The notes beneath the pieces were generated by a model. That model saw only the letters and a list, made by a program, of their open reading frames with translations, did no database searches and was not told where the DNA came from. Below are positions 39,353 to 64,000 of a stretch of 64,000 nt of DNA, piece by piece (positions within the stretch are counted from its first letter, which is position 1; the number at the start of each line of letters is the position of its first letter). The stretch covers positions 21,639-85,638 of the forward strand of contig DF237348.1 in NCBI GenBank assembly GCA_000708835.1. The letters are read 5' to 3'. Origin of the DNA: Klebsormidium nitens. Its lineage: Eukaryota; Plantae; Klebsormidiophyceae. Both the position numbers and the translations under genes were made by a program.

Positions 39353-40333
39353 TCAGTTCGCACTTTTGACTGGTTACCGTACCTCATAAGCGGACAGACC
39401 ACAGTGTATATAAGAGTTGACATAACAGGTTGTTCCCCAAAGATTTTTTAGGTAGTTCGTAGGTGACGCAGAGGCAAGCACCAAGTGGTTTCCAACGCAC
39501 TTTTGTATCGGAAGGTTGACCAATCGTGACCAATGATTTCTGTCCTAAGAGCAGGCGGCCCTACACCTCCGAAAAGGCAATCCGCGGTCTGAATCCAAAG
39601 TCTTTTGTCCAAAGCTTCGCTTCTTGGGAAGCTAGCAAATGAATGCGCATGGTTGACGAACTAGCAGTTTGTGTCAACGATTGATATGCAAATGAAGATC
39701 CAAGGACCGAGCCTGAGCATTAAACTAGCTCCGTGGGCTCAGTCCTTGCTGGTTGTGTTTGACATGCTGGATATACTGCCGCGAAATTCCGTTGGGAAGT
39801 CAGACTTCATCAAGAATCAGCACGTACGTATAGATGATACAAGAAAGCATGATCTACAGCAGCCGGGTAGTGCTGATGCATGTCGACAGGTTGCTAACCG
39901 CGCGGTTAAAACTTAAGATGATAAACCGTGGCGGTTACCGCGTACGTGGTTTCCACGTTCGGATATTCCAACTTTTTTGCCAGCGTGGCACTTGCAACCA
40001 ATAGGGTGCGCTTCCGAGATCTTGCCTTCACTTTGGCCAGCCACGTAAGCGTCGACGGAAGATTCACTTCGTTGCAGTCTGCACTTCAGTCTCGTCACCA
40101 GAGGGCAGGGCTCAACTTTCAAGCAAGAAGAAAGCGAAGGAAAAGCAACCTGAAGAGCATCAGGGCGCTCTTGGAACAATCGACGGCGGTTGAAACCATC
40201 TGACTACCTTGCATTCTCCTTACTCTCTTCGTGGTTGAGCGTCTTGTTTTTGAACAGGTTTCAGCGAAGCGCTTCGCTTTATAGCAGTTTTTTTGCTTCA
40301 ACAAGAAGCTTGCACGCGTTCAATAATAAGAAA

Positions 40334-43300
40334 ATGGAGGCCGTGGCCTCTCCGGCCCTGCACACCCAGGCAGCAGCTGCAGGGTTCGGACAGAGGACGC
40401 ATGGTACGCACGTGCAAACGCAGGTTCGGACACAGGCCGCCCTGCTGCCTCGGCAACAGAGGCATCCAAAGCTCCACAGCTTTGGCTCCGCAAAAAGCAT
40501 TGCAGGCCAGAAAGTTTGTGCAGAGTCTGAGGGGTTTAGGAGGGATAGAAAGGGGCGGGGGCATGCCAGGGCAGCGGGGACGCAAAGTCCGACAAGGGAA
40601 AGGCCCTCAGTGAAAGAGGCGGCCGAGAAGATCGTAGGGGGTCTAGGGGGCGGGCTAGATGAGGTTAAGCTGGATGAGGTAGCGGGGCAGGTAGCAAAGG
40701 AGACGGGGAGCGAGAAGGCGCAGATCAGTGAGTTTTTGAAGCGGGAGTACAAGGCAGGGTTTGTGACTGACATCCAGTCAGAGAGGATTCCGAGGGGGTT
40801 GTCAGAGGAGACAGTCAGGACTATCTCGGCAAAGAAGAACGAGCCGCAGTGGATGCTCGACTATCGCCTGCGGGCCTACCGCCAGTGGCTGAAGATGGAG
40901 GAGCCACGCTGGTCGGACAACAAGTATCCCAGGTAAGCTCAATCCTCATTTCTTTCCCACAGCTCACCTTCGTATTTTAGAGTTCAGCACTCTGAAAGAT
41001 TTCTTTCTATCTTGTCGTCGCTTTGAGTTTTTTTCTGCTGAAGATTTTGGTAATGGTGGCTGGCCCTTTACAATCTGTACCTTGTCTTGAAGCAATCCTA
41101 CTCTAACATAAGTGTCTGGATGAAGATCCCACATGGACGACGCTCCTTTTCTTTAATTGGGTGAGCTCTATAACGGGCTACAAGGGTGAAGGAAAGGTTG
41201 TCTGGCGTGCTCCACTGCGTGTGGCAGCTACGTAGTTGTTTGAATCGTATCGTAAGGAGTTTGTGATTTGCATAGTATTGAGGCTTTTGCTTATTCTTAA
41301 AGCTGCCTTTCACAATTGCAAGGCTGGTGCAACATTGAGATTAACTAAATGCTGTCGCATGTAGTAGCTCCATTGCAGGAGTGCTTGGCAATGTGCAGTG
41401 TGTAGCAGACATTGCTTGCTTTCAGAAACTTTGGAGATCTGACTTTCCGCACTTCGATGTGCAGAGGAAATAGCTCTGCATATACTGGAGTTACCAACTT
41501 GTCCTTCCAGTATTTCACATGGAGTGATCGAGCGAACCCTACTTCTAGCTGATTTCCTTCTCTATACCATCATTTTGCACACGTCCCGAAAGGAGACAAT
41601 GCTGTTCGTCTAGTTTGTTGTCTAAGTGCGCCGGTTGCTTGAATTCTCCCGAGCATATTCTGTTGCTGGTGGTGGCTCTATCTTGAAAAGGTGCACTGGT
41701 GTCCCTGAAAAATCATTGAATTCAAGATTGCAAGTATCTCCTAATGAGCTGGGCTCCTTAAAGTAGAATCCAACGTCCTTTTTTGACCCTGGGTGCTTAA
41801 TAGCATCTAGACGCTGGCAAGCGAGCCTGCTCCGAGCTTGTTCTCTGGAGAACTATTCACCTGTGGCCATTGGGGATTCCTTGTCTGCCTCATCCTAGTT
41901 CAGGGTGTCATTCCCCCTCTGCTTATGGTCCTTTGACCAGCCTCGGTTCGCCTGCTCATTTTGCCCCATCCTACAATTACAAAAGAGAGTCTTCATGGTG
42001 TTCTGCGTGAAGGCTCACAAGGAGGACATGAAGGCTCTTCTTCACAATTGTCTGCTCCCTTTCCTAGCCCTCTGATGGTCCCCCCGCCCTCGTTTCGCCC
42101 CTGCATTTGCACAGGTTGTCTACCAAGGAGCTCTGCAGTTGAGATCCATGAACCGGCATTGCAGCTCCTCGCCCCTAGATTGCTGAGTGAAACTACTTCT
42201 CATTGAGGCAGAAAAGTCCAAATGAAGAACTTTTAGAGCTAGTTTGCCTTCACCCCCTCAAGCCCCATGACTCAATTGTCCCCTTTTACCAGCTTCTATA
42301 TTCATATTCTGAGGTTTAGGAGCTACGCACAGACCATGGCAGAATGCATTGTCAGTTTTCCCCCCTTGCTCTATCTGCTGGCCACACAATTTCCGGCCAT
42401 TAAATTGGCTCTCCCTTTAGCCCCTGCTCGTTTCAACCACTCTTGTGTGCAGGTTGTGTAGCAGAGAATAACGTATCATTAAAAGGGGAAGAAGAGAATG
42501 CTGTGCCATTTCAATCCTTCAATTGTTGCCTGCGGACTCGTATTTGCATGTATGCAGGTTTGATCACAAGGACGTTGTACACGGTTCCAAGCCACGTTGA
42601 TTGGGCAGCTGCCTCTTTTTTATTCCAAAAGTTTTTGTTGCAACTACTTTGCGACGGCATATCTTCCCTACTTATTTCACCCCCCAAAAAGGAGACACTA
42701 ATATCCCCCCATTTTCCATGCAGGATTGACTATCAGGACATTGTGTACTATTCCGAGCCCAAGAAGAAGGACGTCAAGGCGAGCCTCGACGAGGTGGACC
42801 CCGACCTGCTCGCGACATTCGAGAAGCTCGGCATCCCGCTGTCTGAGCAGAAGCGCCTCTCCAACGTCGCGGTTGACGCCGTTTTCGACTCCGTGTCCAT
42901 CGCCACGACGTTCCGCAAGGAGCTGGCGCAGGCGGGCGTCATCTTCTGCTCCATATCCGAGGCTGTCAGAGAGTACCCGGATCTCATCAAAGAGTACCTC
43001 GGCAGCGTCGTCCCGCCGGGCGACAACTTCTTTGCGGCGCTCAACGCGGCGGTCTTCTCGGACGGCTCCTTCTGCTATATCCCGAAGAACGTCGAGTGCC
43101 CGATGGAGCTCAGCACGTACTTCCGGATCAACGATTCGGACACCGGGCAATTTGAGCGCACGCTCATTGTCGCGGAGGAGGGCAGCAAAGTCAGTTACCT
43201 CGAGGGGTGCACGGCGCCGTCGTTCGACACGAACCAGCTGCACGCGGCGGTGGTCGAGCTGTACGCGCACAAGAACTCGGAGATCAAGTACAGCACGGTG

Positions 43301-44854
43301 CAGAACTGGTACGCGGGCGACGAGGAGGGGGTCGGCGGGATCTTCAACTTCGTGACCAAGCGCGGGCTGTGCGAGGGCAAGAACGCCAAGATCTCGTGGA
43401 CGCAGGTGAGAAATCTGTTTTACCAATTGTGTCTGATGAGGGAAGAGCAATAGGGAGGCGGCCAAGAAGGGCTTCTCAATCTGTCTGGTTAGGTTTCAGC
43501 AGTCTCGTGTGTTTGTACACACGCATGTGTGGCGGTTTTAGGGGCTGGCGGGACACTGAAGGAACCGGTCAAAGGGATAATACAGGGGGGTCGGATTAGA
43601 AGGAGTGTGGCAATCAACAGCCATCACGTGCTAATTGTGTGCTAGCTCTGGCTCAATCCTGCTTCTGCATGTCGTCAGCATGTCGTCAGGCTTTTGAATG
43701 TGACAAGTGGTGGGCGCCGGGGCGGGCTACCCCTGCTCCGCTTTCGTGAGTGTAGTCATTGAGGGCTACTCAATCTGCTTCTCTCACCCTCTTCTCTTAG
43801 ACCGGAGTAAGGCAGCGAATCCGGTTCTTAACCCTTTCCAAACCCCGCTTTTTAACCCAGGTCGAGACCGGGTCCGCCATCACGTGGAAGTACCCCTCCG
43901 TCGTCCTCAAGGGCGACAACAGCATCGGCGAGTTCTATTCGGTCGCGCTGACCAACAACCGGCAGCAGGCTGACACCGGCACCAAGATGATCCATGTCGG
44001 CAAGAACACGCGCAGCCGCATAGTGTCAAAGGGCATCTCCGCCGGGAACTCGGTCAACTGCTACCGGGGGCTCGTCCAGGTGGCGCCGACGGCGCACGGG
44101 GCCCGGAACCACTCGCAGTGCGACTCGATGCTGATTGGCGACCAGGCGGGGGCCAACACGTACCCCTACATTCAGGTACGGAAAAGATGGTCAACTTCGA
44201 CGGGTCGAGTATGAGGTCTTAATCCTGGCCCTTGATTTTGGTCTTGATCGTGGCCTAGACAAGGAGGGGTTTGCGTAGAAGTTTCTGGTCGTAGCTGGTC
44301 GCGTTGGTTGCCAGATTGAAAGGCAACGGCTTCCTCTTCCTCACTTGTATGGAGCTTGTCAGGTTGAAAAGTAGGTTTGGATATCTGTGACTGTGCTAAG
44401 CAGCTGCCGTGCGGAAGAAGATTCGTCTATGCACATGCACCAGACCGCAATGTATCAGCACTCTTGAGTGCAGATACTTGTCCGACCCTCCGACTCACAA
44501 TCCTGAAGCTCTTTGGATGCTCGGAAGTCGTGTGGCGTTTCTTCAATCCTGTCTGCTATTGTTTATCTGGTTGACCACGAGCTTTGCAGACCAATCAGAA
44601 GCAAGCTGGCTGATTGTGAAACCCGTTCTCTACAGGTGAAAGACCCGACGGCGCGCGTCGAGCACGAGGCGAGTACCTCCAAGATCGGGGAGGACCAGCT
44701 CTTTTACTTCCAGCAGCGGGGCATCGAGGCCGAGAAGGCCGTGGGCATGATTATTAGCGGCTTTTGCAGGGACGTGTTTAACGAGCTGCCACTAGAGTTT
44801 GCCGCCGAAGTTAACCAGCTGATGAGTCTCAAGCTGGAGGGCAGCGTGGGATAA
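40334..44854 (+). CDS. SUFB: Plastid Fe-S cluster assembly scaffold SufB (NAP1/ABCI8), 4 exons (40334-40932, 42724-43405, 43860-44175, 44636-44854)
   Basis: [10 protein letters not shown]...[130 protein letters not shown]. Confidence 0.97.
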
Positions 44855-46969: not shown

Positions 46970-48991
46970 TTCTTCTCAAACAGGAACCTGCTCAGAAGAA
47001 AGCGGGTATGCAAGGTAAGATGGTAAGCACAGATTGGGGGCTAATAGCCGATTGTATTCCATTGTTGCTTAATCACAGAGGACCTGGGTAGCAACTCTTT
47101 AGACTGTCTACGCCAGACAGAAAATCAACCACCTGATCAGAGTGTACTAGTATTGTAATCGTGATGAAGGACCTGTTTCAAGGGCAACTCGGAGGATTGA
47201 GGGGGGTCGCCTTTTCACATGCCGTGAGTCAGTTGGAGCATCAGAAATCATCTTTCTAACCAGATTGAGTGTTCCAAAGTGCAATTGTCCAGTGTCCGAT
47301 CTGAAGCCAAGTTGGTTGTCGAAAGAACCACGTCATCCCCTATATCTCAATGAAAGCGAACCCAATGGTCATAGTAAACCTCTGATGCGCCCCGGCGGCA
47401 GACTCATGAAAGCTGCGGCAGTCGAGCGGCGCCTGTGCTTTGCCTCGGCGCCCATACACAACAAGTGTCAAAAGTGTGCAGCACTTCCAACACATTCACG
47501 TTTCACACTTGCTGTATCGTGCAAATGCTGCGCGATTGTGGGCCTCCAGAGACCAGAACCATTCCAAATCTGGGAAATGATCTGGTGCTCTGTGCCTAAG
47601 CTCTACGGGTACCCACCTGACGCTGCACGCGCTTGATTGTCGTCGCCCCCCTGCGAGTTTCTGTCGTGATATCTGTCGCGAAATCGTGCCCCAGGGAAGA
47701 AGGTCTACCTATGCAGATTCAACCTGAAAACAAGGACTAGCTTCAGCAAGGACAACCGCTTTCCGTGTCCCTTTTAATACCTCCATTGGCATCATCCCGT
47801 TCCATTGCGCATGGCATTGACGTTCTTCTGTTTCTTCTTTGAAGCCTCGACTTTAAATTTTGTTTTGAGCTCAAGCTGACGAAGGCGCGCGCTAGGCAAT
47901 TGCCATTCCGGCCGCAGTGACTTGCGTTCCGTACCGGAATGCTTGGAGTCCGGTCGGTCGACGCTTCTCATACGTTGCTTCCGGACTCGGTGCGCGGAAC
48001 AGACTCGACGGATCAAAACCCTCTGCCGAATGATCCCTGTGCGTCCGTCCGTCTGGCGGCCCGCGCGCCGCGCATATATAGCGCGCACTGCGGCATGTAG
48101 TAACGTATACGTCAACCGTAATCTGAGGGAATTGAAGGGGAGCAAGGGCACAAGCGACATGCAGCGATTCGGGCCCTCTCGCTGTTTCAACGCGCATGGG
48201 CCTTTGAACTGAACCTACAGTGATACAGTACCTAGGTTTTCTAGCAAAAAGAATGGCGGGCCAATTCAAGAACTTCAACATAATCATGACTATCATGGGA
48301 GGAAGCGCCGTATACCTAGGAGCTACCATGGCAATGGGACAAAGCAAAAGGGCCCTGGCGCAAAGCCCTGCCAAAAGCGTCGGAATTCTTTACTGCTGAA
48401 AGGAAAGCGATCCACAACAGCGATTCGTTCACGACTGCTGAAACTTCAGAGACGCTTCTCGTATTGTTTACGAGAAGCACCAGCAGAGGCACGCAATGAG
48501 TAACCCACGTCGCCTCCAGACTGCGCTTGAACGGCTCACTACCCACTCTCTTTCCAATCAGATATGCAGGAAGACGGCAGGGAGGACCTCAGGAGGCAAA
48601 GAGCAGGTGGAGTCTGAGGGTGAAGAATGAAGGTATGTTACAGCATCTAGGGCTAGAAAAAGCAGTCGGTTTCGCATGCTTCGGCCTGTTGGCTTCACAT
48701 GATTCCTGTTGCTGTTGCCGCATATGTGCTCATTCTTCGTTGCTTCATCAATTCACATAGAAGCATGTAGATGAATCTCGCATGCTTCAAACTTTTAGTC
48801 CGTCCCCTTTATCCAGGCAACGAAGGAATGATTGAGTGGGCAAGGGCAGTCGTCAAAGTCTGGTGGTCGAGCGAGAACCGAGTGGGTTGGTGAAGTGTTT
48901 ATTATGAAGATTCACTAGTTTATAATTGTTCCAGAACCCGTTCACTGTAGGCTCCGCCGGATTGGCCTGTACGTTGAAACGGATGCTTAAC

Positions 48992-49267
48992 TCAATCCCG
49001 TAGAAACGAAGTATGCTTGCGAAGATGAAAGAAAGAAGGACTTCGATTCGGGTGAAGGACTCCGCTCGATGTGAAGGACTCCGCTCGATGTCCGAGATCG
49101 TTCATCATGTCCGGCCCAAAGTCTCCAGCCGCATATACGGTTTTAAGTTGCCTGATGTAGACAGACACCGTTGAATCTGATCTATTCGGCGGAGCTCCAC
49201 GGAGAACCTTATCAGGAGATTGGACCTTCAGTTTTTTGCGTATCTCTGCTTCGAAGCTGGAATCCAT
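48992..49267 (-). pseudogene. Truncated second ORF resembling the N-terminal domain of virus-type tyrosine recombinases
   Basis: RSDSTVSVYIRQLKTVY parallels RTESSTEQYLKGIHLLW of the neighbouring ORF. A 19-bp tandem duplication (49052-49089) shifts the frame. Confidence 0.35.
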
Positions 49268-49291
49268 CGCCGTGAAACCGCCTCGTTGTTA

Positions 49292-50145
49292 CTAATCTTT
49301 ATAGATATTTTTTGTGAGATACAGACGTCTTAAAGTCGATCTGGATTGAAGCGCTTTCCATTGTACTGGATCTTACCCAAGAACATTGACCAGTTGCTAG
49401 CGGTCATAACCGTCTGCGGCTGAGTGACAGAAGTCAAGAAGTAATCTCGAGGTATCAATCGAAGGGTTCGATGAAGATACTTGCTCAGCATCTTTGTTAG
49501 AGGGATTCGATCCCCGTCTTCGAAGACGAGTTTGTAATCTCCCTTGCGTTGTGAGGTCTGCAGCAAATAGCTTGCACCCTCGATCTGTTGGCCCTTCCGC
49601 AGGATTGGAAGCTCGTGCAATTTTACCCGACGACGATGCTCCTTACTCAGAAGCATATGCCATTCGAGGACGAGATGCCACATACAGATCTTCACCTCCT
49701 TAGGAGTGAGATCTCGATTCATGTCTTCGAGACTCAACTGTCTGACCTTGCGTGCGAGCTTCTTTCCGAATGTTTCGACCTCTTCAACGGTCATCTCTGA
49801 TGTGGCGTCCGAGGTCTTGGTCTCAATCTTTCGTTGAGCGGACTCCTTCAGAGCCTTGTTTTCCTTCCGAAACGGCTCATAGTAGGTTTGATAAGCCTCC
49901 GCATAACCGAGTTTGCGGCAAATAGCAAGAAAAGGGGCTAAGCGAGTACGCCTGCTTCCAGGGTTATCATAGCGCTCTAGAACAGCTGCAACGATCTTCT
50001 GAGCCTTACTCTTTATCCACGAAGGGTCCTCGGGCATTTTATCCTCGAAAACCATGTTCCATAGAAGATGAATCCCCTTGAGATACTGCTCTGTGGAACT
50101 CTCGGTCCTAATCCCATCAGCTAAGACCTTCCGTAGAGCATCCAT
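49292..50145 (-). CDS. Tyrosine-recombinase-like protein (Polinton-like-virus/NCLDV type), catalytically degenerate, one frameshift near 49330
   Basis: Intronless. N-terminal STEQYLKGI...W...KIVAAVLERYDNPGSRR. C-terminal SYLL...IPLTKMLSKYL...YFLTS...MTASNWSMFLGKI..GKRF, then LRRLYLT in the -1 frame, comparable to the LRHxYIS box. No catalytic Tyr segment follows. Confidence 0.5.
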
Positions 50146-50299
50146 AGTTATCACCCGTCTACGATGATGCAAGAACATATTTTTATAATGTCTTCCATTT
50201 CGCAACAAGTTATTTCAAAAAGGTCGGTCACAATAAAATGACATCGAAACCTCTCCTAAACGATTACTTTTTTGAAACTGCGTGCGGGGGGCCGAAAAT

Positions 50300-50327
50300 T
50301 GTTGAGAAATCTCGAGATTTCTCAACA
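50300..50327. promoter_or_regulatory. 28-bp perfect palindrome in the AT-rich divergent intergenic region of the virus-like module
   Basis: TGTTGAGAAATCTC/GAGATTTCTCAACA is self-complementary. A second palindrome, TAACTAGTTA, lies at 50331-50340. Function is unknown. Confidence 0.6.
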
Positions 50328-50515
50328 GAATAACTAGTTATTTAAAAAGCACTTGACACTTTTTCACTGTCTCTCCGCCTGCGTTTCACACCATATACAA
50401 TGTATAATATTGCTTGTAGCAGAGATTGTTGAATTTGCATAATATGAAATGCATTAGGGGGCGGGATTATTTTGTTCGAAACTATCATGACAAGTTGCAT
50501 CAGAGGCCAGTCGAT

Positions 50516-51013
50516 ATGGAATCCACGAAACGAAGCTTTCGGGTGATTGCTGCCTACGATGCGAAGGGGAATGATGCGCTTGCTCTGGTGAAGGATACAC
50601 GACTCGAGATCGACGCCAACAAGGGGCGCGTCTGTCAGGCAGGAGCCCGCGCAGGGTCCCAACTCTTTCGGACACAGAAATGTCAGGGGAAAAAGGTTTC
50701 CCTTCCACAGAGGGTGGTGGTCCTTATAAAAGAGACTACAAGAGGTTCAACAAATAAAAAGTATGGGTACTCCGTCGAGATCGGTCCGGTCAAGAAGTGT
50801 GACCGCCCGACTGGTTTGCCATTTCAAGGGACGTTTCAGAGCATAGCAACAAAGATGGAAGTCGAAGACATCGAGAATATGAAGCTCCGAAAGAAGTCTT
50901 CTAAGACGATTAAAGCCACCCAGAAGCCCAAGGCTAAATCCACCCGGAAGAAGCCTGACCCAGCAAAGACAACGGAATCAGTTGATTCCAATTCCGATTC
51001 AGACTCGGATTGA
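50516..51013 (+). CDS. MC1-like (archaeal/giant-virus non-histone chromosomal) DNA-binding protein with Lys-rich and acidic tail, 165 aa
   Basis: Intronless. SFRVIAAYD...GRVCQAGARAGSQLFR...VVVLIKETTRGSTNKKYGY...RPTGLP follows the MC1-family pattern (QAAxKA...IxLRETTRGSxKKxYxY) of giant-virus proteins. Confidence 0.65.
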   Translation: MESTKRSFRVIAAYDAKGNDALALVKDTRLEIDANKGRVCQAGARAGSQLFRTQKCQGKKVSLPQRVVVLIKETTRGSTNKKYGYSVEIGPVKKCDRPTGLPFQGTFQSIATKMEVEDIENMKLRKKSSKTIKATQKPKAKSTRKKPDPAKTTESVDSNSDSDSD

Positions 51014-51557
51014 TTGCGTCATGGAGATCCGGTCCTGAGTCCACCGTTTGAGAGCGCCATGTGGCGGTCAGGACATTTGGTGTCTTAGTCAGAAGTTGCC
51101 TTCAATGGATTGCAGAGTGTAGCATGGCGACTCCAATCAACTTTCCGATTTCTTGCCACGTCAGCAAATTCGAGTCCGGAAGCTAGTACACATGCCCGCC
51201 GATCTAGAAAACACATCGATGAGCACCATGACACGCGCATTTGCTTACTGAACTTGATTGCGTGCTAACACCCTACTCATCAAGGACTACACAATTTGTC
51301 TATCAGAAGTGCTTAATCTCAAGACGAAATATTGCTCTTCCTAGCATGCGTAAGGGACGCGAGATCAAAAACTACTCCTATCCCCGCTATTGTGAACATG
51401 CTACCAATGGGATTCCGATTTGGAACGAGACAACAAGCAAGATATAAACTGGTCCACACCATCCTAGAACACTTTCGACTCATCGCCAAATGCCATCTGC
51501 AATGCGCGCACCACGCACACCACAAAGATAGCCTATTCAAATCGCTCGACTTGCACC

Positions 51558-54500
51558 TCACACTCGAGCAGCATCGAGCGCGTGCTCGAATCCCATAACC
51601 GCCAAGAGCTCCCTAGCCATGGCTGCCATCTGAGGAGGGTACATATGCCGCCCAATCTCGTTTTTGTCGTACTTGAAGTCTCGGTCAACCACTTGCTCCA
51701 GGAAATCGAGGGCGTGGATCGGCTTCGGCCCGAAGGTTTGCAAGAACTCCTCGCTAAGGTATGGCACGTCGTAGAACCGTGCCAGCTGAAACTTCTCCAT
51801 CTGCACTAACTCCCCCTCGCGATGTTCGTTTCTTTGGGACCGCCGTTCAATGTCGGCGAACTGGGCTTGCGAGATGTTAGGGGCGCTGATCATCTGCTCC
51901 AAGAGATACTCGCCCCCAAAAACCCCTTCTTCCGAGGGGACCGGGTTCACTTCGACCGCCTCTTCGTCTACGTTCTCGACGATGACGTGGCCGTCCGCCC
52001 TCAGCAAGTCTGTGAACTCCTGGTAGAAATGCGTCTGTCCGTTGAACATCTCCTTCTCGTTGTGAGCGAGAAGACGGGTTATTGGATGCACACAGTTCAG
52101 CCCGCCCCTTAGATTCTGGTTGAGGAACCACTGGTAGGTCTCTTCGACCCCCAGCCTTGCCTTGCTACCCGACCTGCTCATCTCCATCAACGACCCACCC
52201 ACTGACGGCCCCGCGGGTTCGGCGGGCAACCAGATGCCCTCCTGGAGATAGCACAGGACCCGTGGATTCTCCAACTTCCGTACACGGCCCTTCATCTGAT
52301 TGAGCCCCCGAGGGTGGGTGCTCTTCAGGCAGATGTACAGGAACATCTGGTGAAACCAGTCCTGGTTGAAATCCACGCCTGCTTCGACCGTGGGGCTGAT
52401 GATTACAAGCTGTTTCCGCCACTGCCTGTTCACATCCTGCAACCCTCGTTTGACTGCACCGTCCGAGTGCCGAGTGATGATGAGATCTGATCGCTCTCGA
52501 CCAGACCGCGCTCCTCGACCGCCGCCCCCAACTCTCGCACTTTTTCTGAGGACATGCTCACGATATAGACGTTGCGCCCAGCCCCAAGCGCCTCGAAAAC
52601 CGCCCCCTCCCACTTGACAAGCCCCTCGGTCTTGCCCTGAAGGAACTCAAACTCGAGGGGCCTCTCTGGAGCATGTTTGTTGACCACCACGGGGGAGCAG
52701 GATATCTCGTTCATCGTTAGGAACTCAAACGTCCGTTGCCCCAAATGCCCGTCCAGGAAGATGATCCGCCGCGCTCTTTTCATCAACTCGATAAGGAGCT
52801 GAATGACTCTGTGCCTCTCGCGAAGCGTGTCCGCCGACAGATGTGCCAAAATCGACTCGCTCTCGTCCAGGACGAGCAGGTCAAACGAGGGGGCGTCCTC
52901 GTCGTCTTCAGCAAGCAGCCCGGGCAAGCTGTCAGTTTGGACGATGACGCGGGGATGGTGTTCCCGGTCGGCGAGGGGGTGGATGAAGCGGTCGGGGCCG
53001 AGCATACGCCCATCCGCCTGCTTGAGATCTCCGTAGTGGGAGAAGCTCTGGTGCTTGCCTGCCGCGTCGAGAGCTTGCGTGCAGCGATAGGTGATCATGG
53101 AGACCTTCTTGAATCGTGAGTCTTCGGCTAGAAGAGCCGCAAGAAGGGTGCTCTTGCCGCTCCCCATGGGGCTCCTGATCGACAGATTTTTGTACCGGCC
53201 CTCCAGCCACCTGCACAAAGAAGTGAGATAGAGTCTTTGGATCCGTCTTCCGAAGCCGGCCGACTGGCAAGTGATGCAGCAATATTCCTTTCCTAACATA
53301 TGGCCTACACCTTGCAGATGGCAGAAGACTGGATTCCTTATTTCCCATGACAAGGTGTGGGCCCGTTCAAATGTTTTAGCCACTCATTTCAAGCCACTCC
53401 AAACCCACGAATCTGCTTCTGAACCGGCCCAGCAGCCACTTCTCCTCACAGCTATCCATAGAGGACCTGGCCTACACCTTGCAAATGGCAAAAGGCTGGA
53501 TTCCTTATTTCTATTGACAAGGTGTGGACCAGAGGCAGGGCACGTGCCCAAAGTCGGGTTTTGCCAACCTCGGCCCGGTGTCCGGTCGGGCTTGCTTATG
53601 GCCTACACCTTGCAGATGGCGAAAGACTGGTTTTCTTACCAGCATGAAAAGGTATGGCCCCGTTCACCAAACCCTGAAAGTGGGGGACCAGCGACAAAAC
53701 AAAAGGACTCCACCAGAATGTCAAGTCGACCATTAAAACCGAGACTGAAACCGAGCGTGTACGAACTCACTTGTTCACGATGTCATTGAAGACGACCTTG
53801 TCCGTCAGAGGGCGGACCCCGGCGCGAATCAGCTGCAGGTCCATGGGCGCGGCAGCCAGCGGGTGTCGATCCAGGTACTTCAGGTCGACCTCGACAGCAC
53901 CATCCTTCCAAGTTTCGTTGTCCACCCAGTAGGGCCCAAGGTACTTGGCCGGCAGGTTCTTGCAGCAGACACCCGTCTCCAGATCGACCCGCTCGCTGCT
54001 GCACACCGCGAACACGGCGTTCCTCTCGCGATCCGCGACACAGAGGATGTCCCGCTCCCCGGCATGCACGTGCCCCGAGTAGCACGGCTCGCTCCGATCG
54101 TGCCAGCTGAAGTTCAACGCGTTTGCCGACCCCCTGCGGTACGCCGTCGGGTGCAGTTTCTGGATGAGCTCCGTGCACCGTTGTACCTCATACATGCTCG
54201 CAGCTCTGGGGTTTAGGTGGCCTGGATTCTCTGGCCTCTCGCGCGCGCGCACCGCTCGAAACACGACGTCAGGGACCTTGATCATTTGAACGTGGTCATC
54301 GAACCAGGTGATGCAGGCGTCCGCGTACGGCTTGCTCTCGTCCAAGGGGATCAGCCGGCTCTGAGGGTTAGAGGGTTTGGAGCAGTAGGGGAGTCGGATC
54401 CCCCGGTTCCTGGTGTAGACCGACTGGTCGATCAGCTCGGCATAACGGTTGGGCAAGTGCTGGCCGAGCTTTCTCGCGAGATGCCCCGCTCCTTGAGGGT

Positions 54501-57500
54501 CCGCCGGGGGCGCCAGGTTGGAGCGGTAGACAAACTGGGGGGAGTGGGAGGAGACGACTAGGTGCAGGCTGAACTTGCCGCCCGGCCCATAGTCGCAGGG
54601 GATCCAGTTGAAGGCTTCCTTTGGAAGCTCGATGCCGTACTCCGAGCGGAAGATGGCCGTGATTTCCTCCTCAAAGGCCTCAATGACCGTTTCGAGGGAC
54701 TCTCCCTCTGGCAGGCCCCCGTCTCGTTCCAGATCCAGGTACGGCTTGCAGGGACACCCCGCTTTGATGGCCTCTTCCAAGTGAGGCTCGCCGCGCAGTT
54801 TGGGGTAAGCCGAGGGCCAATCCGGGTAAGACCCGAACTCCCGGGAGGGACGCAGGCGACGGATCTCGACCTGATGGCCGAGCACTTCCCCGTAACGACG
54901 GCAGCAACCCTGCGGCCCGTTCTTCGCGTCCTGGTAGTCGACCTTATCGTCGAACTTGCGCTTGGCAAAGAAGAAGGCGCCCAGCTCCGTCTTCTTGATG
55001 GTCAGCAACTTCCCGCCGTGCTCGCTGTGGACCACAATCTCGCCGGGGCGCAATCGAGGGTCCGCTGATGAGGCATCCTGCACGAAAGAAACCAGACCGA
55101 GTCACTGCTGGGAGACGTACAGCGGCCGCGGGAATCCGTACTTAGAGAAGCGCTGTTCTGAAGAGAGGCAGAATCTCATGTCTTTACACCACAGCAGCTG
55201 GTGCTGGTGCCGAATCTCACTAAGCTTGACCGCAATGATAAAGGGGTTTGCGTCAGGGTAAGGATGTTCCGAGAAGCAGCCTTGGGGCATTCGACGATCT
55301 TCGTCAGATAGACAAGTGCGGTGATACGAAGTCGATTGGCCGCCCCTGCTGAAGGGGTTCATAGAAGAATGGCCACTTCGAGGATTGAAATCCGGGCTCA
55401 CTCACTACTTAGCATGGTCCAGGTAGGTTACGTAAGCTCATGTCCGTTGACAAGGTACAAACGGGATGAGAATGTTTTCTGCACAATTGGGACTTACAGC
55501 TTCTACTAAAGCCCAGGTCGCGGATTGAGAAGGCGGGTCGAAGTCGGGGGTTGCGCTGGGCTCGCCAGCTTCTGCACCGGGGGGCAGGCTTGCTGCGCTA
55601 CTGAGATGGTCGGAAGGGATCCCTTGGAGCCGCTGCCGTACATCTTGGCCCCTCTCAAGTTCCTGCAAAATCGCGAATGCTGGAATCAAACGCTCACAAT
55701 CGAGCCTGCCCTCGATTTTCAGAACACCGCTTGCTGTGGCCTACACCTTGCAGATGGTAGAAGACTGGTTTCCTAATTTCTAATGACAGTGTGTGGACCA
55801 GATGAGGACCAGAGGCGGGGCACGTGCTGTGGCGAGGGGCAAAACTTATGGCCTACACCTTGCAGATAGCGCAAGACTTGAATTCCTTATTTCCATTGAC
55901 AAGGTATGGACCAGAGGCGGGGCACGTGCACACAGTAGATTTGCCAACCGCGGCGTGCGGTCGGGCTTGCTTATGGCCTACACCTTGCAAATGGCAAAAG
56001 ACTGGTTTCCTTATTTCCAATGACAAGGTGTAGACCAAGTTTTTAAAGGAAGAGACGGGCCCTCACCCACCATCTGCAATTTCCACGAGCTTGCATTGCA
56101 TGGTTCAGCCGGGCTTTGTAAGCTCAGGTCAAGCGAAGAGTTTGACGGAATCGAATGCCTTTGCACGGTCGGAACTTACATCTCCAACTGAAGCGCAGGT
56201 CGCGAGTCGAGAACGCGGATCGAAGTTGGGGGCTGCGCTGGGCTCGCCAGATTCTGCAACGGGGGACCGGCTTGATGCGTCACTGGAACTCTCTGCAGGG
56301 ATCCCTTGGAGCCGCTGCTGCGCATCCTGGAGCCTCTCGAGTTCCTGCGTAACGTGCACACTGGATCTAACACTCGCATCCGAGCTTATCCTCATACCGC
56401 TTGCTTTGGCCTACACCTTGCAAATGGGAAAAGGCTGGGTTCCTTATTTCTAACAACAAGGTGTGGACCAGAGGCAAGGCACGTGCCTACCATCGATTTC
56501 TGCCAACCGCTGTGTGGTCGGGCTGGCTTATGGCCTACACCTTGCAAGTGGCAAAAGGCTGGGTTCCTTAATTCTAATGACAAGGTGTGGACCGGAGGCG
56601 GGGGAGTGGGCGCCCACCACGCCCATCCGCGCTCTGGCTCGAGCTTGCGTCCTAGTCCGACCCAACACGTCGGACCCAAGGCTGACACTGATTTTTGATG
56701 CAGTGCTTGACCGTGTATGCCTAACCGCTCATGATCAGTCCTGACACCCGCCCGACCATGCATGCCAAGCCCGCATGCCTGACCTTTAAAAGATCTATGA
56801 AAGTCTCTTAACAACGCAGCATGTGCGTTCTCTGGTACCGCCAGCCTCACCTCAGCCTGCCCAAGGGCCTCGTGTGGACTGTGCTGGATCGACTGCCGCA
56901 TCGCGCTGTCGAAGTGCCTGAAATCATAGGAAGCATATGGGTGAAAACATCAGCGATTATCGTAAAAATTGAGACGATTTGCTGTCTCGAGGGACGTTTC
57001 TGCAGCTGATCAGTCGACCTGCACCCGCACGCACAGACACGACGAGTCATTCAAGAGCAGAGGCTCACTCGCCACCCTGCCGGTCCTCCTCGCCAACTTC
57101 GGCCACTGTCACGTCCATGCCCGAGCGCTCCCGCAGGGCCTCGGCCGCGACTGCCACTTGGGCGGGTCGATGGCCCCCTCCCTGCACCTCAGGCATCCGC
57201 CGCATCGTCGCCTGCAAAACCAGCGAGTGCGTCTTTTCCATCCGATCTCGAAGGTAGCGGCTTTCTCTGCCTACGTCTAGATTCTGCTTTCTAGACGATG
57301 CTTCGACATCGGAGTCAGATGCAGGTAAACAGCAGAAAACAGATCAGCATTTTGGGGAGACCAGAGGCGGGGCACGTGCCCACCGTCGGTTTTGCCAACC
57401 GCGGGGTGCGGTCGGGCTTGCTTATGGCCTACACCTTGCATATGGCGAAAGCCTGGTTTCCTTATTTCCAATGACAAGGTGTAGACCAGAGGCTCATGCC

Positions 57501-60500
57501 TACCATAGCCATCCGGCTTGAGCTTGCGTCCAAGTCTTACCCAACATGTCGGACTCAAGCCTAATACTGATATTGTTGCACTGCCTGACCCTGCATGCCT
57601 GACCCCTCATGATCGGTCCTGACATCCGCCTGGCCCTGCCTGCCAAACCCGCAAGCCTGACCGTTGACGAATTATGACTGTCTCGAACAATAGCACGTGC
57701 TTTTCTCTTGTAACGTCAGCCTCACCTCAGCCTGCCTGAAAGCCTCCCGTGGGCTGTGCTGGACGGACTGCCGCACCGCCTTATCGAAGTGCCTGCAACG
57801 ATCGGAAGCATGTGGGTGATAACCTTGGCGATTAGCGTGAAGGACGTTTTGCTGTCTCGAGTACGTTTCTGCAGCTGATCTGCACCCGCACGCACGGACA
57901 CGACGAGTCATTCAAGAGCAGAGGCTCACTCGCCACCCTGCCGGTCCTCCTCGCCGACTTCGGCCACTCTCGCGTCCACGCGCGAGCGCTCGCGCAAAGC
58001 CTCGGCCGCGACTGCCTTTTGGGCGGGTTGATGCAGCCCTCCCTGCGCCTCAGGCATCCGCCGCGCCGTCGCCTGCGAAACGAGCGAGTGCGTGTTTCTG
58101 TCCGATCTCGAAGGTGGCGACTTTTTCTGCCCATGCCTAGCTTTTGTTTTCGTAAGATGCTCCAATATCGGAGTCGAATCCAGATGAACGGCAGCAAGCA
58201 GATGAGCATTTAGGGGAGATGTGCACGGAAGGCTGCATTTGGCTGCAAGGGATTCCAACCGCAAAAACGCAAAGCGACAGCACTGACGAGTGCGCCCGCG
58301 AGGGATGCGAGTCGCACTCCTATATCAGCCGGATGAGTTCGCACCTCCTGCCTGTTTTGATGGGGCCTCAATCCCTCTAGAGTCCGGAAATGAGCCTCAC
58401 GAGCCGCCCAGATCTCCGCCCGAGCCGCCTCGTCCATCGGGGGAGGAATCGGCTTCGCACGCTTGCTGTGGGTGAAGGGAGAAGAAGAATTCGAGTCAAT
58501 GACGGGCCAAGACTCCTCAGCCACAGGCCTGCTACCCTGCAAAAAGCCGTCTGCACCAGGTCCCTATGTCGACTCGAGAGGCCTCTCTGTGCTCAGTGAC
58601 CCAGTCAAACTGATTCCTAACCAGGATCACTGGCAAAAGTCGAACCCGAGATGACGAATGAGGGGACAACGAGCTTACTGTGACGTCTTCTTCACCGGTT
58701 GACCAGCCTTTGGCACCACCGATCTTGATCCCCCTGCTGCTTCAACCTGGGGGGAAGCAATATGGCGGAAGGGTGGGCAAGTATTGAAGCTGTGCACGGC
58801 CACTGCCACGAGGAAGACCTAGGGCTCCCTTATGAGGTTGTCGAAAAGCGGCCGGTCAGGATCGAGCGAGACGTATGCAAGCGCCTCTACGCTAAGGAAA
58901 TCGTTTCACATCCTATCCTCCTACTGACAGTGAACGGTCTCACCCTACGAGCGAGCTCTTTTCTGGAACGAGGAAGGGTAGTTCTACAACCACGAGGGCT
59001 GGTTGGAGTACCTAATTTCGCACTGCTCTGCCGTGTGGGGAGTGAAGCTGAGCGGGACATCGAGTGGAAGGGGGCGACAGAGCCTCGACTGGAGTCGAGG
59101 GCCGTATCATCCTCGAGATGCCCATTTTCTGCACAAGAATGCGAGTGGACTCACCAAAGGTGTAGGCTCCGTAGCAGCAGAGCGAAGCTCATCGGCAGGA
59201 TGCGGAGGAGCGGGGGAAGGGCCCGGGTTCTGCATGACAAGAAAAAGCCTAGGGTCTTAGGAGCAACCGGCATGGATGTGAGGCAACTCTAGAGGATAGA
59301 ATATTACTGCAATGCAAGGGAGAGGCTCGGAAGTGGTCAATCGAAACCCGAGAGTAGCAGTGTCGTTCGCATTTCGAAACCTTCCTGGACAAGAACCCGG
59401 GACACAGACGAGGCACCTTTTCGAAGCGTTTACCTTTGCAGCACTTCAAATGCGTCAAGGACACTGTCTAAGTCTGGCGCAGACGACGGCTGATCTAGCC
59501 TCCGGCATCGAGAATCAGTAAATGGTCCAACTCACATGCGGCTCCCCAGCAGCGGACCCCGTGGACTGCTGACACACATCATGACCATCGCTTGTTGCCA
59601 CGCCAAGTTCCTGCACATGAGCGTCGAGCGAAATCCCCTTTTGCATATGGCCACACCTTGCAGATGGGGAGAGACTCGATGTCTGCACCGATGACGATGT
59701 GTGGACTAGTGAGAAAGAGAGAGAAGAGCGAAATGCCCATCATCGGTTTTGAATATCGCAAAGTGTGGTCGGGCTTGCTTGTGTGGCCTACACCTTGCAG
59801 ATGGCAAAAGCCTGGATTTCTTAATACCAATGACAAGGTCTAGACCCGATTCTCAAGAAGCATGACGCATGCCCATTTTCGGCTCTGAGAACCGCGGGCT
59901 TTCGTCGGGCTTGCTTATGGCCTACACCTTGCGATTGGCAGATTAACTTGGTTCCCTATCCCCAATGAAAGGTGTGGACCCGATTTTCGCCCACCATCTG
60001 CGCTTTGGATCGAGCTTGCATCGCCTGGTCCAAACAGATTTCGTAAGCTCAGGTCGATCGACAAGGTGCAACACTGGAAGTTTGACGAGACTGAGTGTCT
60101 TTGCACAATTGGGACTTACATCTCCAACCAAAGCGCAGGTCGCCGAATGAGAAGGCGGGTCGAAGTCGGGGGCTGCGCTGTGCTCGCCAGCTTCTGCATG
60201 GGGGGGTGGGCTTGCTGCGCTACTCAGATCCTCAGCGGGGTTCCCCTGGAGCCGCAAGCGCACATCCTGGCCCCTCTCGAGTACCTGCATGACGCACACA
60301 CCGGACACTCACATTCGAGCCTACCCTCATATTCCGCTTGCTTTGGGCTACACCTTGCGGATAGCAGGAGACTGGAATCCTTATTTCCAATGACAAGATG
60401 TGGACCAGAGGCGGGGCACGTACTGTGGGGAGGGGCTCGCTCATGGCCCACCTTGCAGATGGCAGAAGACTGAATTCCTTGTTTCCAATGACAAGGTGTG

Positions 60501-61660
60501 GACCAGAGGCGGGTACGTGCCCACCGTCGTTCTTGCCACGGCTGTATGGTCGGGCTTGCTTATGGCCTACACCTTGCAAATGGTAAAAGCCTGGGTTCCT
60601 TAATTCTAATGACAAGGTGTAGACCAGAGGCAAGACTTTCCGCCCAGCCTGGATTGCATTTGCAAGCTCAACATGAAAGTCGCGATGAGCCTGTAGAGGG
60701 CGGAGTGCCTAAGTTCTCTTGGATATTGCAGGCCACAAGAGCTCCTCGAGCATACCAACGAGCGCCTCACATGTGAGAATGGTTGCGGCGTTGGCACGTG
60801 CTCCTCCTCTGCCTCCTCTAACTCTTGAGAGAGATTCGGACGGCGTCGCTTCCTCTCGAGCGCCCGCCCTGTTAATACCACCCCACCAATGTCCTCCTCG
60901 AGACAAGAGGCTCCTTCTGGGCAGCGCTCGCCTTCACCGTTGGAGGACTGCAAAGACGACACGCAACAAGCCTGATGGGTGTGGACTTCATTCCACCATC
61001 AATCAAGCGTCACCAGGCGCCTTCCTGATGAGAATCCAGGATTGCTTCAGCTGCGAAGCACGCGTGCCTTAGCGGCACACCAGATTTAGCAACCCAACGA
61101 AGTCGCATCGAGACAAATTGCGTTGGCATCATGTTGCTCCTGTCTCTCAGCTTTTCGCAATCCAGTTCGTACCTTGCGTTTGCATTTGATTGACGGTGAT
61201 ACAGGAATCGGCTCTCTAAAAGCGCTGTTGGTAGACCAGTTGGCAACCGGAGAGGTGGGTGAATCACCCTGTACAGCACAGCAAACCCAGAAGTGGCTTG
61301 ACAGCAGAAGACACTGGTCAGTTTTGCATAAACGGGCACCAATGTTGCACGAGGCAGTTGCAAGAGAATGGGCAGACACCCTGGTGTAAATCTCAGACAC
61401 AGACTTTCAAGCCAACATAGTGCGTGCAGGTCATTTCGTAGGACCCAGAAGCCCACTGGACTGGGTTGACGCTAACCTCATTGTTGGGAGCCCTGTAGAA
61501 GCTTGCACCTTGTATGCTGCCAGAATCTTGATCGTCAAAGAAATCTTGTAGTGACTGTCCAGACTGAGATCCATCGACAGATCGATCAGCATACTCAGCA
61601 CCTTCGATGTCCTCTCCTTGGGTCCCTTCTGATTCTGACACATCACTGTACACATGAGCA
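51558..61660 (-). CDS. Multi-exon AEP primase-polymerase / UL9-type SF2 helicase fusion with a long repetitive N-terminal arm; one frameshift at ~52484; 5' end not found
   Basis: The AEP exon (55077-53771) has KPYLDLE, KFSLHLVV and LIDQSVYTRNRGIRLPYCSKP. It splices in phase (AA/G) across intron 53770-53211 to the helicase exon: SPMGSGKST, ITYR, FDLLVLDESES, IIFLDG, IISPTVEAGVDF, NQMKGRVRKL. Upstream exons have canonical GT-AG ends and compatible phases. Confidence 0.8.
53302..60625. repeat. 15 same-orientation copies of a ~62-nt hairpin in six clusters
   Basis: Consensus GGCCTACACCTTGCARATGGCARAAGRCTGGDTTCCTTATTTCYAATGACAAGGTGTRGACC. Starts at about 53302, 53469, 53600, 55738, 55850, 55975, 56408, 56532, 57426, 59649, 59785, 59919, 60345, 60445 and 60564. 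Confidence 0.93.
55498..60284 (-). repeat. Duplicated exon cassettes: A x3 (165 nt each) and B+C x2 (143+67 nt)
   Basis: A at 60284-60120, 56344-56180 and 55662-55498. B+C at 58072-57930/57792-57726 and 57211-57069/56917-56851. Lengths are identical, splice sites are intact, and flanking intron sequence is also duplicated. Confidence 0.88.
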
Positions 61661-62902
61661 GAATACCTGTGAGCATCTCAGCTTGCACTATACGTGAGTG
61701 CATTCAGACCTAGGCAGAACTAGACGCAAACATTTCCCCGCTGATCCTGCAACTCCGCAACTCTGCAACTCAAGTAGAGATTGACCACTAGTATGATATT
61801 TGGACCTGTTTTTGAAAACACATGCCTTTATAGTCACTCCGCTCTCATCACGCCCATCTCCCAGTCTGCAATTCTGATCCCAATCACTTTCCAGCCCCAG
61901 TGCTGTCCAGAAAAGCACTCACCTATCCCAAGGCAGGTGCATGTCGGAAGACATGGCAGCTCAGCTGGCATACGCAACCAGCCGCAACCAGCCAGCTTTA
62001 TGTGACCAGAGCTCCGTCAGGCTCACAGCCTGATCAGCTTCAGCTGCTAATTGTCAGCATCAAGTCTGCGCTTCACAGGGTTGACTTAGCTTTAGCCTAC
62101 ACTAGGTCTCAGTAGCATAAGACTTACCATGATGGCAGGCAGTATCTGGATTACAAAAGGACCATCGACTCTAGGCGGCGTGTCTGTAGGCCATACTCGC
62201 AGGCGTTTGGAAAGATGAGTGAGGATTGAAAAGAAGGGGAGTCCCGGAAAAGCTCATCTGCAAATTAAAGGATTGAAGCAGAAGATTGCCCCTTTACATC
62301 CCATGAGCACGCGAATTCAGTCGAACACTGTGCATGATCCAGTAAAGCTGCAGCCTCTGCTTTGTTGGCAGGCTGCTGCGTTGGCAGAAGCTTCCTAACC
62401 CTTCCAAACTGCTGCGTTGGCCGTCCGAAAACTGTCACCCTTTAGAAGGCAACCAACAAAGCGACAGGGCTGAAGCTGCTTGAGTCTTTGCTGCATTGGC
62501 CTGAGTTTCCAGAATCTGTTTGAGCTGAGTGTTCAGAGCTTCCAATACCTGCTGCTTGCGTTGGCCTTGTCAGGGCCTGATTCAGACTGCTGACTCAAGC
62601 AGGACTTTCGCCTTGCACTGAACGCCCTTTGTGTGCGCGCCAAAAAAAAAGCTCCCGCAGTGTGCTGCCAGCTGGACGCTTCGGATGCTGAAGTCGAGTC
62701 AAAGCCAGTCTTCTTGCAAGACCCTTCTTGCGCGCGCTGCTCGCGATCGGACGGCGAAGGGTCGTTCGGGCGACGAAACCTTCTGGCCTCGGCTTTTGCA
62801 ACCAACATCATGATCGAAGTCGAGTGCGAGGGCTGAGTGGCAGTGTGGAATGGCTCAGGCGCCGCATTCACTGGTCTCTGCGGGACGTCACTGGTGAGGT
62901 GA

Positions 62903-64000
62903 ATGGCGTCTGCCGCAGTGCTCTTCAAAGTGGCTGGGGCAAAAACTTTATGTTCGCGCGGGCAGGCAGACATTGCCCCTGCAACGCCCCAGCGATTCGC
63001 TTTCAGGACACTTCCTCCATCTCTGTATGAGGGATTGAGGCTGGGCCGGTTTCATTCCGACTACAGGGTGGGGTCAGGATTGAGGCGCTTCTCGCCGAGG
63101 GCAGAGATTCCCCGGGAGGGAGCAGAGTCTACCGGAAGTTCCAACTTGGTTGACAGCGTGCCTCAGGCTGAACAGGTCAAGGATGAGGCACAGGCTCTCA
63201 AGTCGAGCATCAAGCGTGTGGAGAAGGAGATTGACGATGTGAAGAACCAGATTAAGACTGCTGCGGCTGCAGGCAAGAGCACAGAGTTCTTGCAGCGGGA
63301 GAAGACCGCGCTGCGGCAGAAGGAGGCCGCGCTGCGGCAGAAGGAGGCCGCGCTGGAGCAGCGACTGACCGCGCTCGTGCAGGCGGAGGTGGAAAAGTTG
63401 AAGCTGCAGCAGACACCAGGTACGTCTCCCGTCGTCTTACGCATGGAGAGCGGTCTCCTTGGAGCAGCCCAGCAAACCAGCGCACAGATGTGAAAAGACC
63501 ATGAGCGGCGCTCTGCTGCCAATGTTGTGCTGCAGGCAATTCCCCTGCTGCTTGTCGATGTTTCGCAAAGAGAGTGGTAGGGCACACCGCACAGAGGGTA
63601 TTCTATCTGTCTTTGCCTGCAGTTCAGGTGTCTGCTCAATGAGCCATGGCAATCTGTCTCGATTGTTGCTGCTTAAGAAGGGTTTTTGTATCTGTGTTTG
63701 CCTGATGTTGGTGTGTTGCTCTGTGGGTCATGGCAACATGCAGGCGGAAAGGTTTTGCGGTGCAGAGAAACTACTTCCAACCTCATAGCCTGCTTAGCAT
63801 TTGCAGTTGGCTTATCCAGTGACTGCGTGTGGAATGCTGACAGATAGCTTCTGTCGTGTGCAGCAGCGGGGATTCCAGACCCTGCAGTCTTGGGTAAGTC
63901 TTTGTACCTGTCTCCACCTGTTGGCGCTGTGTGCTGAAGCGCTTGTCGCACCTGTCAGCATTGTCTTCTATTTGATCGCTGTTTCAGGTGCTGTTTGACT
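62903..64000 (+). CDS. First exon (62903-63419) of a coiled-coil protein with a transit-peptide-like N-terminus; presumably continues past the window
   Basis: MASAAVLFKVAG... then IKRVEKEIDDVKNQI...LQREKTALRQKEAALRQKEAALEQRL, including a 21-nt tandem repeat. The exon ends at the CCAG/GTACGT donor. Confidence 0.55.

Follow-up and report, generated by a model that had tools for sequence, protein, structure and literature searches.

A 64,000-nucleotide (nt) stretch of the genome of the streptophyte alga Klebsormidium nitens (contig DF237348.1, positions 21,639 to 85,638; hereafter the window) carries 15 copies of a hairpin, all of which lie in introns of a gene for a primase fused to a UL9-like helicase (the replicase gene). 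The array is real, apparently restricted to one gene family, and under sequence-specific constraint on one arm of the hairpin. It is possible, and we tentatively propose, that the hairpins form a cluster of microRNA (miRNA)-like precursors yielding a small RNA with a 5' U and an invariant seed. The fixed, seed-length core of this 15-copy intronic hairpin gives one exact testable prediction.

An intronic hairpin array in a primase-helicase gene

A nucleotide profile recovered 15 full copies of the hairpin in the 64-kb window, all between positions 53301 and 60626 and on one strand (E 1e-22 to 4e-13). The next-best matches were the reverse strands of the same 15 copies and nothing comparable was found elsewhere in the window. 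Including its end pair the unit measures 64 nt, rather than the 62 nt of the original prediction, and consists of two imperfect inverted 14-nt arms around a 36-nt interior with weaker inner pairings. The 15-bp outer stem is solid (88% of cells paired), whereas the consensus fold retains only some of the inner pairings proposed earlier. All full copies are oriented alike and all are intronic, occupying six of the 16 introns of the minus-strand gene in clusters of 3, 3, 2, 1, 3 and 3, an arrangement that had been predicted from the sequence and is borne out by the profile together with transcript contigs. The hairpin-bearing introns are 486-560 nt long and the other ten are 137-420 nt. The predicted distance of about 40-90 nt between the last hairpin and the 3' splice site was measured at 37, 59, 62, 74 and 90 nt in five introns, and is 213 nt in the sixth; the nearest hairpin ends are 37-213 nt off the 3' splice sites and 109-256 nt off the 5' splice sites. 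Linkers of 35-70 nt join the copies and, as had been noticed, are reused from one hairpin to the next. The features are as follows:

51088..61954, minus strand, host gene with 16 introns, encoding a low-complexity N-terminus of duplicated exons, a primase with a Cys/His-rich domain, and a UL9-like helicase
53301..53661, minus strand, cluster of three hairpins (53301-53364, 53468-53531, 53599-53661) in intron 53211-53770, which separates primase from helicase exons and was taken from loose-end sequences
55737..56037, minus strand, cluster of three hairpins (55737-55800, 55849-55913, 55974-56037) in intron 55663-56179
56407..56594, minus strand, cluster of two hairpins (56407-56470, 56531-56594) in intron 56345-56850
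57425..57488, minus strand, single hairpin in intron 57212-57725, product of a tandem duplication of about 894 bp
59648..59981, minus strand, cluster of three hairpins (59648-59707, the most decayed; 59784-59847; 59918-59981) in intron 59611-60119
60344..60626, minus strand, cluster of three hairpins (60344-60407, 60444-60505, 60563-60626) in intron 60285-60770
55974..55989, minus strand, one instance of the conserved 3' arm, which on the transcribed strand reads TGCAAGGTGTAGGCCA, with positions 2-9 (GCAAGGTG) invariant in 15 of 15 copies
57364..57424, minus strand, example of the linker of about 60 nt, 72-90% identical among the five copies compared; the hairpin-proximal 14 nt are also well conserved
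51450..51513, minus strand, diverged copy in opposite orientation, 45 nt past the last stop codon, in the 3' untranslated region (UTR) and covered by transcript contigs

The last of these features qualifies the earlier claim that the hairpin never falls in an exon. This holds for full copies, but the diverged copy in the 3' UTR exon had been missed. It consists of two exact 12-mers at exact spacing with an unrelated middle. None of 100 shuffles of 50 kb reached its score of 3.7, and 0.0017 such matches are expected per window. It folds on the mRNA strand only (z -2.8 vs +0.6); the family may have arisen from it, or it may be a relic site.

Transcript contigs from three studies skip segments with CT..AC ends (GT-AG on the minus strand), and no such joints occur in the DNA run. 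The three runs were guessed to be RNA, a guess that these intron-skipping joints support. Fourteen of the 16 introns were taken from listed joints and two (53211-53770 and 60948-61172) from loose-end sequences, with nine joints recorded in addition to these; the joint 59224-59541, with 10 letters between its two sides, was judged to be an alternative or paralog form and does not enter the gene model. Splicing excludes a coding role for the hairpin repeat. In two of the transcript runs, contigs also read through intron 60285-60770 and its three hairpins (60255-60798), which represents either intron retention or pre-mRNA.

The identification of the gene as a primase joined to an origin-binding-type helicase is supported by a match of the helicase region to PF02399 (E 1e-12) and by the paralog P0003, whose only PDB sequence matches are to the herpes origin-binding protein (E 8e-4). 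The primase region, which we take from its motifs to be of the archaeo-eukaryotic type, had no Pfam match. The closest protein relatives are six K. nitens proteins at 55-90% identity, with four more distant ones at 33-38%, and of the 7995 candidates scored against the N-terminal cassette region of P0001, the sole match was the region itself. The reading frame spans 1271 codons up to a frameshift near 52465, which is also present in transcript contigs (contig 52374-52822, gap-free). The second frame ends at 51558, equivalent to residue 1701 of the 1864 in P0003, with the loss of the last ~160 residues. This copy of the gene is spliced yet damaged. A replicase gene stands beside a recombinase-like open reading frame (ORF) both in the window and at two algal loci, which suggests that the gene originated in a mobile element, and it is probably derived from one.

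When the hairpins are masked, five of the six introns have flanking blocks in common. The primase/helicase intron 53211-53770 has in common with the others only the hairpin and a 67-nt linker (72-85% identical), and the hairpin-linker module was therefore copied there apart from the exon cassettes. The independent spread of the hairpin that had been proposed thus applies to this cluster, but not to the other 12 of the 15 copies, which are accounted for by cassette and tandem duplication. The duplication that produced the single copy at 57425 has its junction at 57359, 4-6 nt inside the hairpin end and with 2 nt of microhomology; at 55807 the same motif coincides with a second stray start of a linker. 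The G-boxes in the linkers (five of the eight beyond position 50000) are copies of one another.

Genome-wide we estimate roughly 40 copies (61 contigs at 80% identity; summed depth of 515-590 over the hairpin body vs 12-16 for single contigs), a figure obtained from the contigs of one DNA run on a single 201-nt stretch, with 65 loose-end rows beyond those considered, where summed depth is not a true copy number. The depth over the left arm suggests up to ~80 copies, which is probably inflated by overlapping contigs. The consensus flanks of the genomic copies resemble the linkers and intron ends of the hairpin introns in the window, which points to paralogous introns rather than a dispersed miniature inverted-repeat transposable element (MITE). 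The concern that the hairpin is a common genome-wide MITE is not borne out by this rough count and these intron-like flanks. The 14-bp imperfect inverted ends are terminal inverted repeats of the kind that MITEs carry, but no target-site duplication was seen in any of the 15 copies inspected (their flanks are reused linkers), nor a high copy number at unrelated sites. An introner-like mini-element, also suggested originally, is excluded because the hairpin ends lie 37-256 nt from the splice sites.

The hairpin pattern had no match in metagenome, viral or prokaryote contigs. Its 16-nt core matched nine viral contigs, in none of which the second arm was found, and these matches are hence due to chance. 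No match of the hairpin profile better than E 0.15 was obtained in any of six related loci, and the four 14-nt core forms were absent from paper texts, a search to which supplements did not belong. Replicase and recombinase-like queries returned no confirmed locus in viral or prokaryote contigs.

Conservation of one arm and a candidate small-RNA precursor

The two arms of the hairpin differ in conservation. On the transcribed strand, eight consecutive columns in the 3' arm, GCAAGGTG, are invariant (permutation p 0.002). A mirror 7-mer common to both arms is altered in seven of the 15 5' arms and in none of the 15 3' arms (Fisher p 0.003); because both arms hold the same 7 bp, mutability is matched between them. 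Parsimony assigns eight steps to the 16 columns of the 3' arm, 20 to the 16 columns of the 5' arm, and 58 to the 32 interior columns, with a difference between the arms of p 0.018 (0.015 after correcting for window choice). Within two duplication blocks the 16-mer is 88-100% identical, compared with 59-81% for intron and 78-88% for exons. The candidate mature arm is thus better conserved than the star arm and the loop, as expected of a miRNA, according to post hoc tests on related copies.

RNA folding with 14-nt flanks gave the transcribed strand the better z-score in 11 of the 15 copies (mean -2.6 vs -1.6), whereas the two strands tie when folded as DNA (mean z -1.69 and -1.64). There are 40 G-U cells on the transcribed strand vs 19 on the opposite strand. 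The spliced contigs, the outer stem and the strand preference together indicate a fold-back on the transcribed strand, as in a miRNA precursor. Three scans against Rfam 15 gave no family match (best E 0.72, 3.3 and 3.2, far under gathering scores). A miRNA from the antisense strand was rejected, since its seed would lie on columns with six parsimony steps, as opposed to zero for the transcribed-strand candidate.

miRNA families usually have a seed that never varies, a middle that is almost fixed and a tail that is free to change. In the proposed mechanism, the intron RNA would fold and be processed by a Dicer-like enzyme, releasing from the 3' arm an RNA of ~21 nt whose first base is the U that precedes the invariant GCAAGGUG. 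The invariant run would then coincide exactly with the seed (positions 2-9), positions 10-16 would be nearly fixed, and positions 17-21 would be free. Argonaute loaded with this guide would repress a putative target elsewhere in the genome. The precursors would be carried in the spliced transcript of a damaged gene, multiplied by the duplication of exon-plus-intron cassettes. Of the candidates listed in the original prediction, a small-RNA precursor fits the conservation pattern best, with the small-RNA product itself still a prediction.

Several observations weigh against this proposal. Covariation is absent from the 15-copy alignment, in which a double change is seen at a single pair, a level reached by 455 of 500 shuffles. 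Some copies fold poorly (e.g. 55737, z near 0 or above), the last five bases of the candidate guide fall outside the well-paired stem, and the lower stem is scant or weak. The 5' arm and the loop region do not differ significantly in conservation (p 0.09), so upkeep of the fold is not demonstrated, and conservation reaches ~14 nt beyond the hairpin into the linker, further than a 21-nt guide requires. The conservation tests were chosen after the alignment had been viewed and were applied to related copies, which makes their p-values optimistic. No small RNA was observed in the transcript data, which are assembled contigs and would not reveal one. Outside 53250-60700, a scan of the window with three candidate 21-mers found no target site scoring at least 6.5. 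As a target of the best candidate guide, the diverged 3' UTR copy has a seed mismatch (pairing read by eye) and a target-scan score below 6.5.

The sections of the literature available to us report DCL1 and AGO1/5/10 homologs in K. nitens (PMC7994812; PMC9864873); in the same partial coverage of its small-RNA literature, with supplementary files outside the search, we found no sequenced miRNA set. The closest parallel is Chlamydomonas reinhardtii, where, in the portions consulted of PMC4817775, intron- and UTR-derived miRNAs are the majority, are DCL3-dependent, and are reported to act in a seed-centred manner. Both systems place hairpins in the introns and 3' UTR of a green-alga coding gene. 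The Chlamydomonas miRNAs are established by sequencing and mutants, whereas the K. nitens small RNA is predicted; K. nitens also differs in having the same hairpin 15 times in one gene and in being a streptophyte alga with DCL1-type enzymes. The primate C19MC cluster, as described in part of PMC2637760, is likewise a hairpin family multiplied by cassette duplication, all on one strand. Its cassettes are Alu/LINE-flanked and lie in a ~100-kb locus, whereas those of K. nitens are primase-helicase coding exons with a 64-nt hairpin. Rice miR820, according to the text available of PMC3459959, resembles the K. nitens hairpin in being borne in many copies by a mobile-element family (CACTA transposons). 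It differs in having a known target, OsDRM2, where that of K. nitens is putative, and the K. nitens element is a primase-UL9 helicase beside a tyrosine-recombinase-like ORF.

If the hairpins are small-RNA precursors, part of the reason for the retention of the gene may be that its transcript hosts the introns, a mobile-element gene would carry a battery of guides, and an early-branching streptophyte would be making guides from introns, as Chlamydomonas does.

Alternative explanations of the array

A passive palindromic minisatellite is, in our judgement, only somewhat less probable than the small-RNA reading, and it accounts for the spread of the copies and the absence of covariation. Such a repeat would stem from an old inverted duplication, spread by slippage or unequal crossing-over, and multiply together with the exon cassettes; a perfect block of ~30 nt, where retained, would make a copy recombine, and therefore be copied, most often. 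The location of 12 of the 15 copies within duplicated blocks, the tandem-duplication junction 4-6 nt inside the hairpin end with a second stray linker start at the same motif, the absence of covariation, the continuation of the conserved block into the linker, and the frameshifted and shortened gene are all consistent with this explanation. It does not readily explain the contrast of 7/15 vs 0/15 altered copies between equal-sequence arms only 36 nt apart. The loop is moreover only 72% identical, as opposed to 94%, and gene conversion tracts would usually include the loop too.

It is improbable, though still arguable, that the hairpins are DNA binding sites or replication origins for the element's own UL9-like helicase, similar to herpes simplex virus 1 (HSV-1) oriS or to the homologous regions (hrs) of baculoviruses. 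The two inverted 14-bp boxes are unequally conserved around a 36-bp spacer that is 61% A+T in the 10 ungapped copies (vs 37-46% for the 1-kb bins of the region), resembling Box 1 and Box 2 of oriS as described in the available part of PMC12543377. Clustered 64-bp palindromic repeats are also the layout of baculovirus hrs, which the portion seen of PMC4535591 describes as clusters of imperfect palindromes acting as both origin and enhancer. The hairpin copies seem to be tied to the primase-helicase gene family, with a relic copy at the 3' end of the gene, and a UL9-related helicase is adjacent, as in the viral systems. However, the local helicase is frameshifted and ends ~160 residues early, in the region of the herpes UL9 DNA-binding domain (equivalence assumed; PMC12543377, in part). 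No comparable palindrome array was found in five of six related loci (L006 excluded; several loci are short), and the strand bias in folding is seen for RNA only. The damaged helicase and the RNA-only strand preference weaken the origin or priming-site candidate of the original prediction. In the parts of these two sources that we drew on, oriS and the hrs are intergenic viral DNA with demonstrated binding or origin activity, whereas the K. nitens hairpins are intronic, with a spacer of only moderate A+T content and a broken local helicase. Should the core be a protein box, a family of algal primase-UL9 elements would have a candidate origin in the array; in the literature to which we had partial access, we found no apt description of an element of this kind.

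We attach a low probability to a splicing element, in which the 3' arm would act like a pyrimidine tract followed by AAG/GU, forming a decoy or recursive splice site that is hidden or exposed by the stem. For five of the six clusters the distance to the 3' splice site is 37-90 nt, the invariant run spans AG/GU, and two runs contain the contigs that retain intron 60285-60770. None of the 15 listed joints, however, uses a hairpin site, and 10 of the 16 introns are spliced without a hairpin, including 55078-55497, the 5' part of which is homologous to two hairpin introns.

Readings other than those named in this text are very unlikely. An H/ACA guide RNA was considered: the bases after the stem read A-N-A in 13 of 15 copies, but ACA in only two, and the first A is also part of the stem. 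A pseudouridylation pocket is expected 14-16 nt before the box, and in the predicted folds the strands at this distance pair together, with no open pocket. Ribozyme, small nucleolar RNA, selenocysteine insertion sequence and kink-turn readings lacked Rfam support and their motifs were not found on inspection.

A neighbouring recombinase-like ORF and related loci

The last reading considered involves an ORF downstream of the replicase gene:

49330..50142, minus strand, ORF with a predicted Cre-like tyrosine-recombinase fold, 1.4 kb beyond the last stop codon of the replicase gene

The structural model of this ORF has a predicted local distance difference test score (pLDDT) of 81 and aligns to a Cre-like fold with Z 8.9 (root-mean-square deviation 9.1, 229 residues aligned). 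Foldseek matched it to PDB at E 0.02 and to a named viral tyrosine recombinase at 4e-3. The ORF terminates at the position of the HxxR motif (Cre residue ~291-294, in what we take to be the Cre active-site numbering), before the catalytic tyrosine, and 10 of 11 aligned relatives (45-93% identical) terminate at the same column. The +1 frame across the stop reads LRRLYLT, which is recombinase-motif-like, and past the stop the same frame has a W...Y pair. A conserved frameshift, readthrough or an intron is possible at this end. Summed DNA depth is 230-345 over 49003-50882 vs ~16 nearby, with loose ends at 50882, and this segment is perhaps a multi-copy element of ~15-20 copies, more abundant than the adjoining replicase gene. 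The three transcript runs have no cover over 48001-51006, which includes the ORF; we did not use this as evidence.

The hairpins could in principle be recombination sites akin to the attC sites of integrons, at which a member of the tyrosine-recombinase family duplicates and shuffles exons and so builds the repetitive N-terminus. We consider this very improbable. The hairpins are imperfect, ~60 nt long, in one orientation and flank duplicated cassettes; the homology of one block runs from one hairpin to another, and the duplication junction lies 4-6 nt inside a hairpin end. The ORF with the predicted Cre-like fold is close to the gene, and at two related algal loci a replicase likewise neighbours an ORF in which tyrosine-recombinase-like motifs were recognised by eye. 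attC sites keep structure rather than sequence and carry RYYYAAC/GTTRRRY boxes, whereas here the hairpin sequence is kept, covariation is absent, and the boxes were not seen in the alignment. Furthermore, the neighbouring ORF ends before the catalytic tyrosine, and the single clean junction with its 2-nt microhomology fits ordinary template switching.

The recombinase-like ORFs of the two algal loci (L002:9604-10779 and L004:1100-2542, both on the minus strand) are 37% identical to each other and adjoin intronless primase-UL9 helicase genes. They had no Pfam match, and no profile alignment between them and the Cre-like ORF of the window was obtained (probability 0.5%). Also in L002 are a partial second copy of the helicase C-terminus and a coiled-coil gene with a nuclease domain (PF04471, E 6e-8). 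In L005, a distant relative, a 30-nt inverted repeat (87%) at 1798-1858 starts with GTAAG, breaks the primase-helicase frame and looks like a hairpin-bearing intron; its sequence is unrelated to the hairpin of the window.

Within the window, a 197-codon open frame (50420-51013, plus strand) lies between the recombinase-like ORF and the 3' end of the replicase gene and has no convincing Pfam match. Another open frame (62903-63493, plus strand), which had weak Pfam matches below the cut-off, contains 21-nt tandem repeats encoding a coiled-coil-like stretch and points away from the replicase gene. Among host landmarks, the nearest clear one is an intron-split gene at 40333-44854 on the plus strand, presumably SufB-like from its translation.

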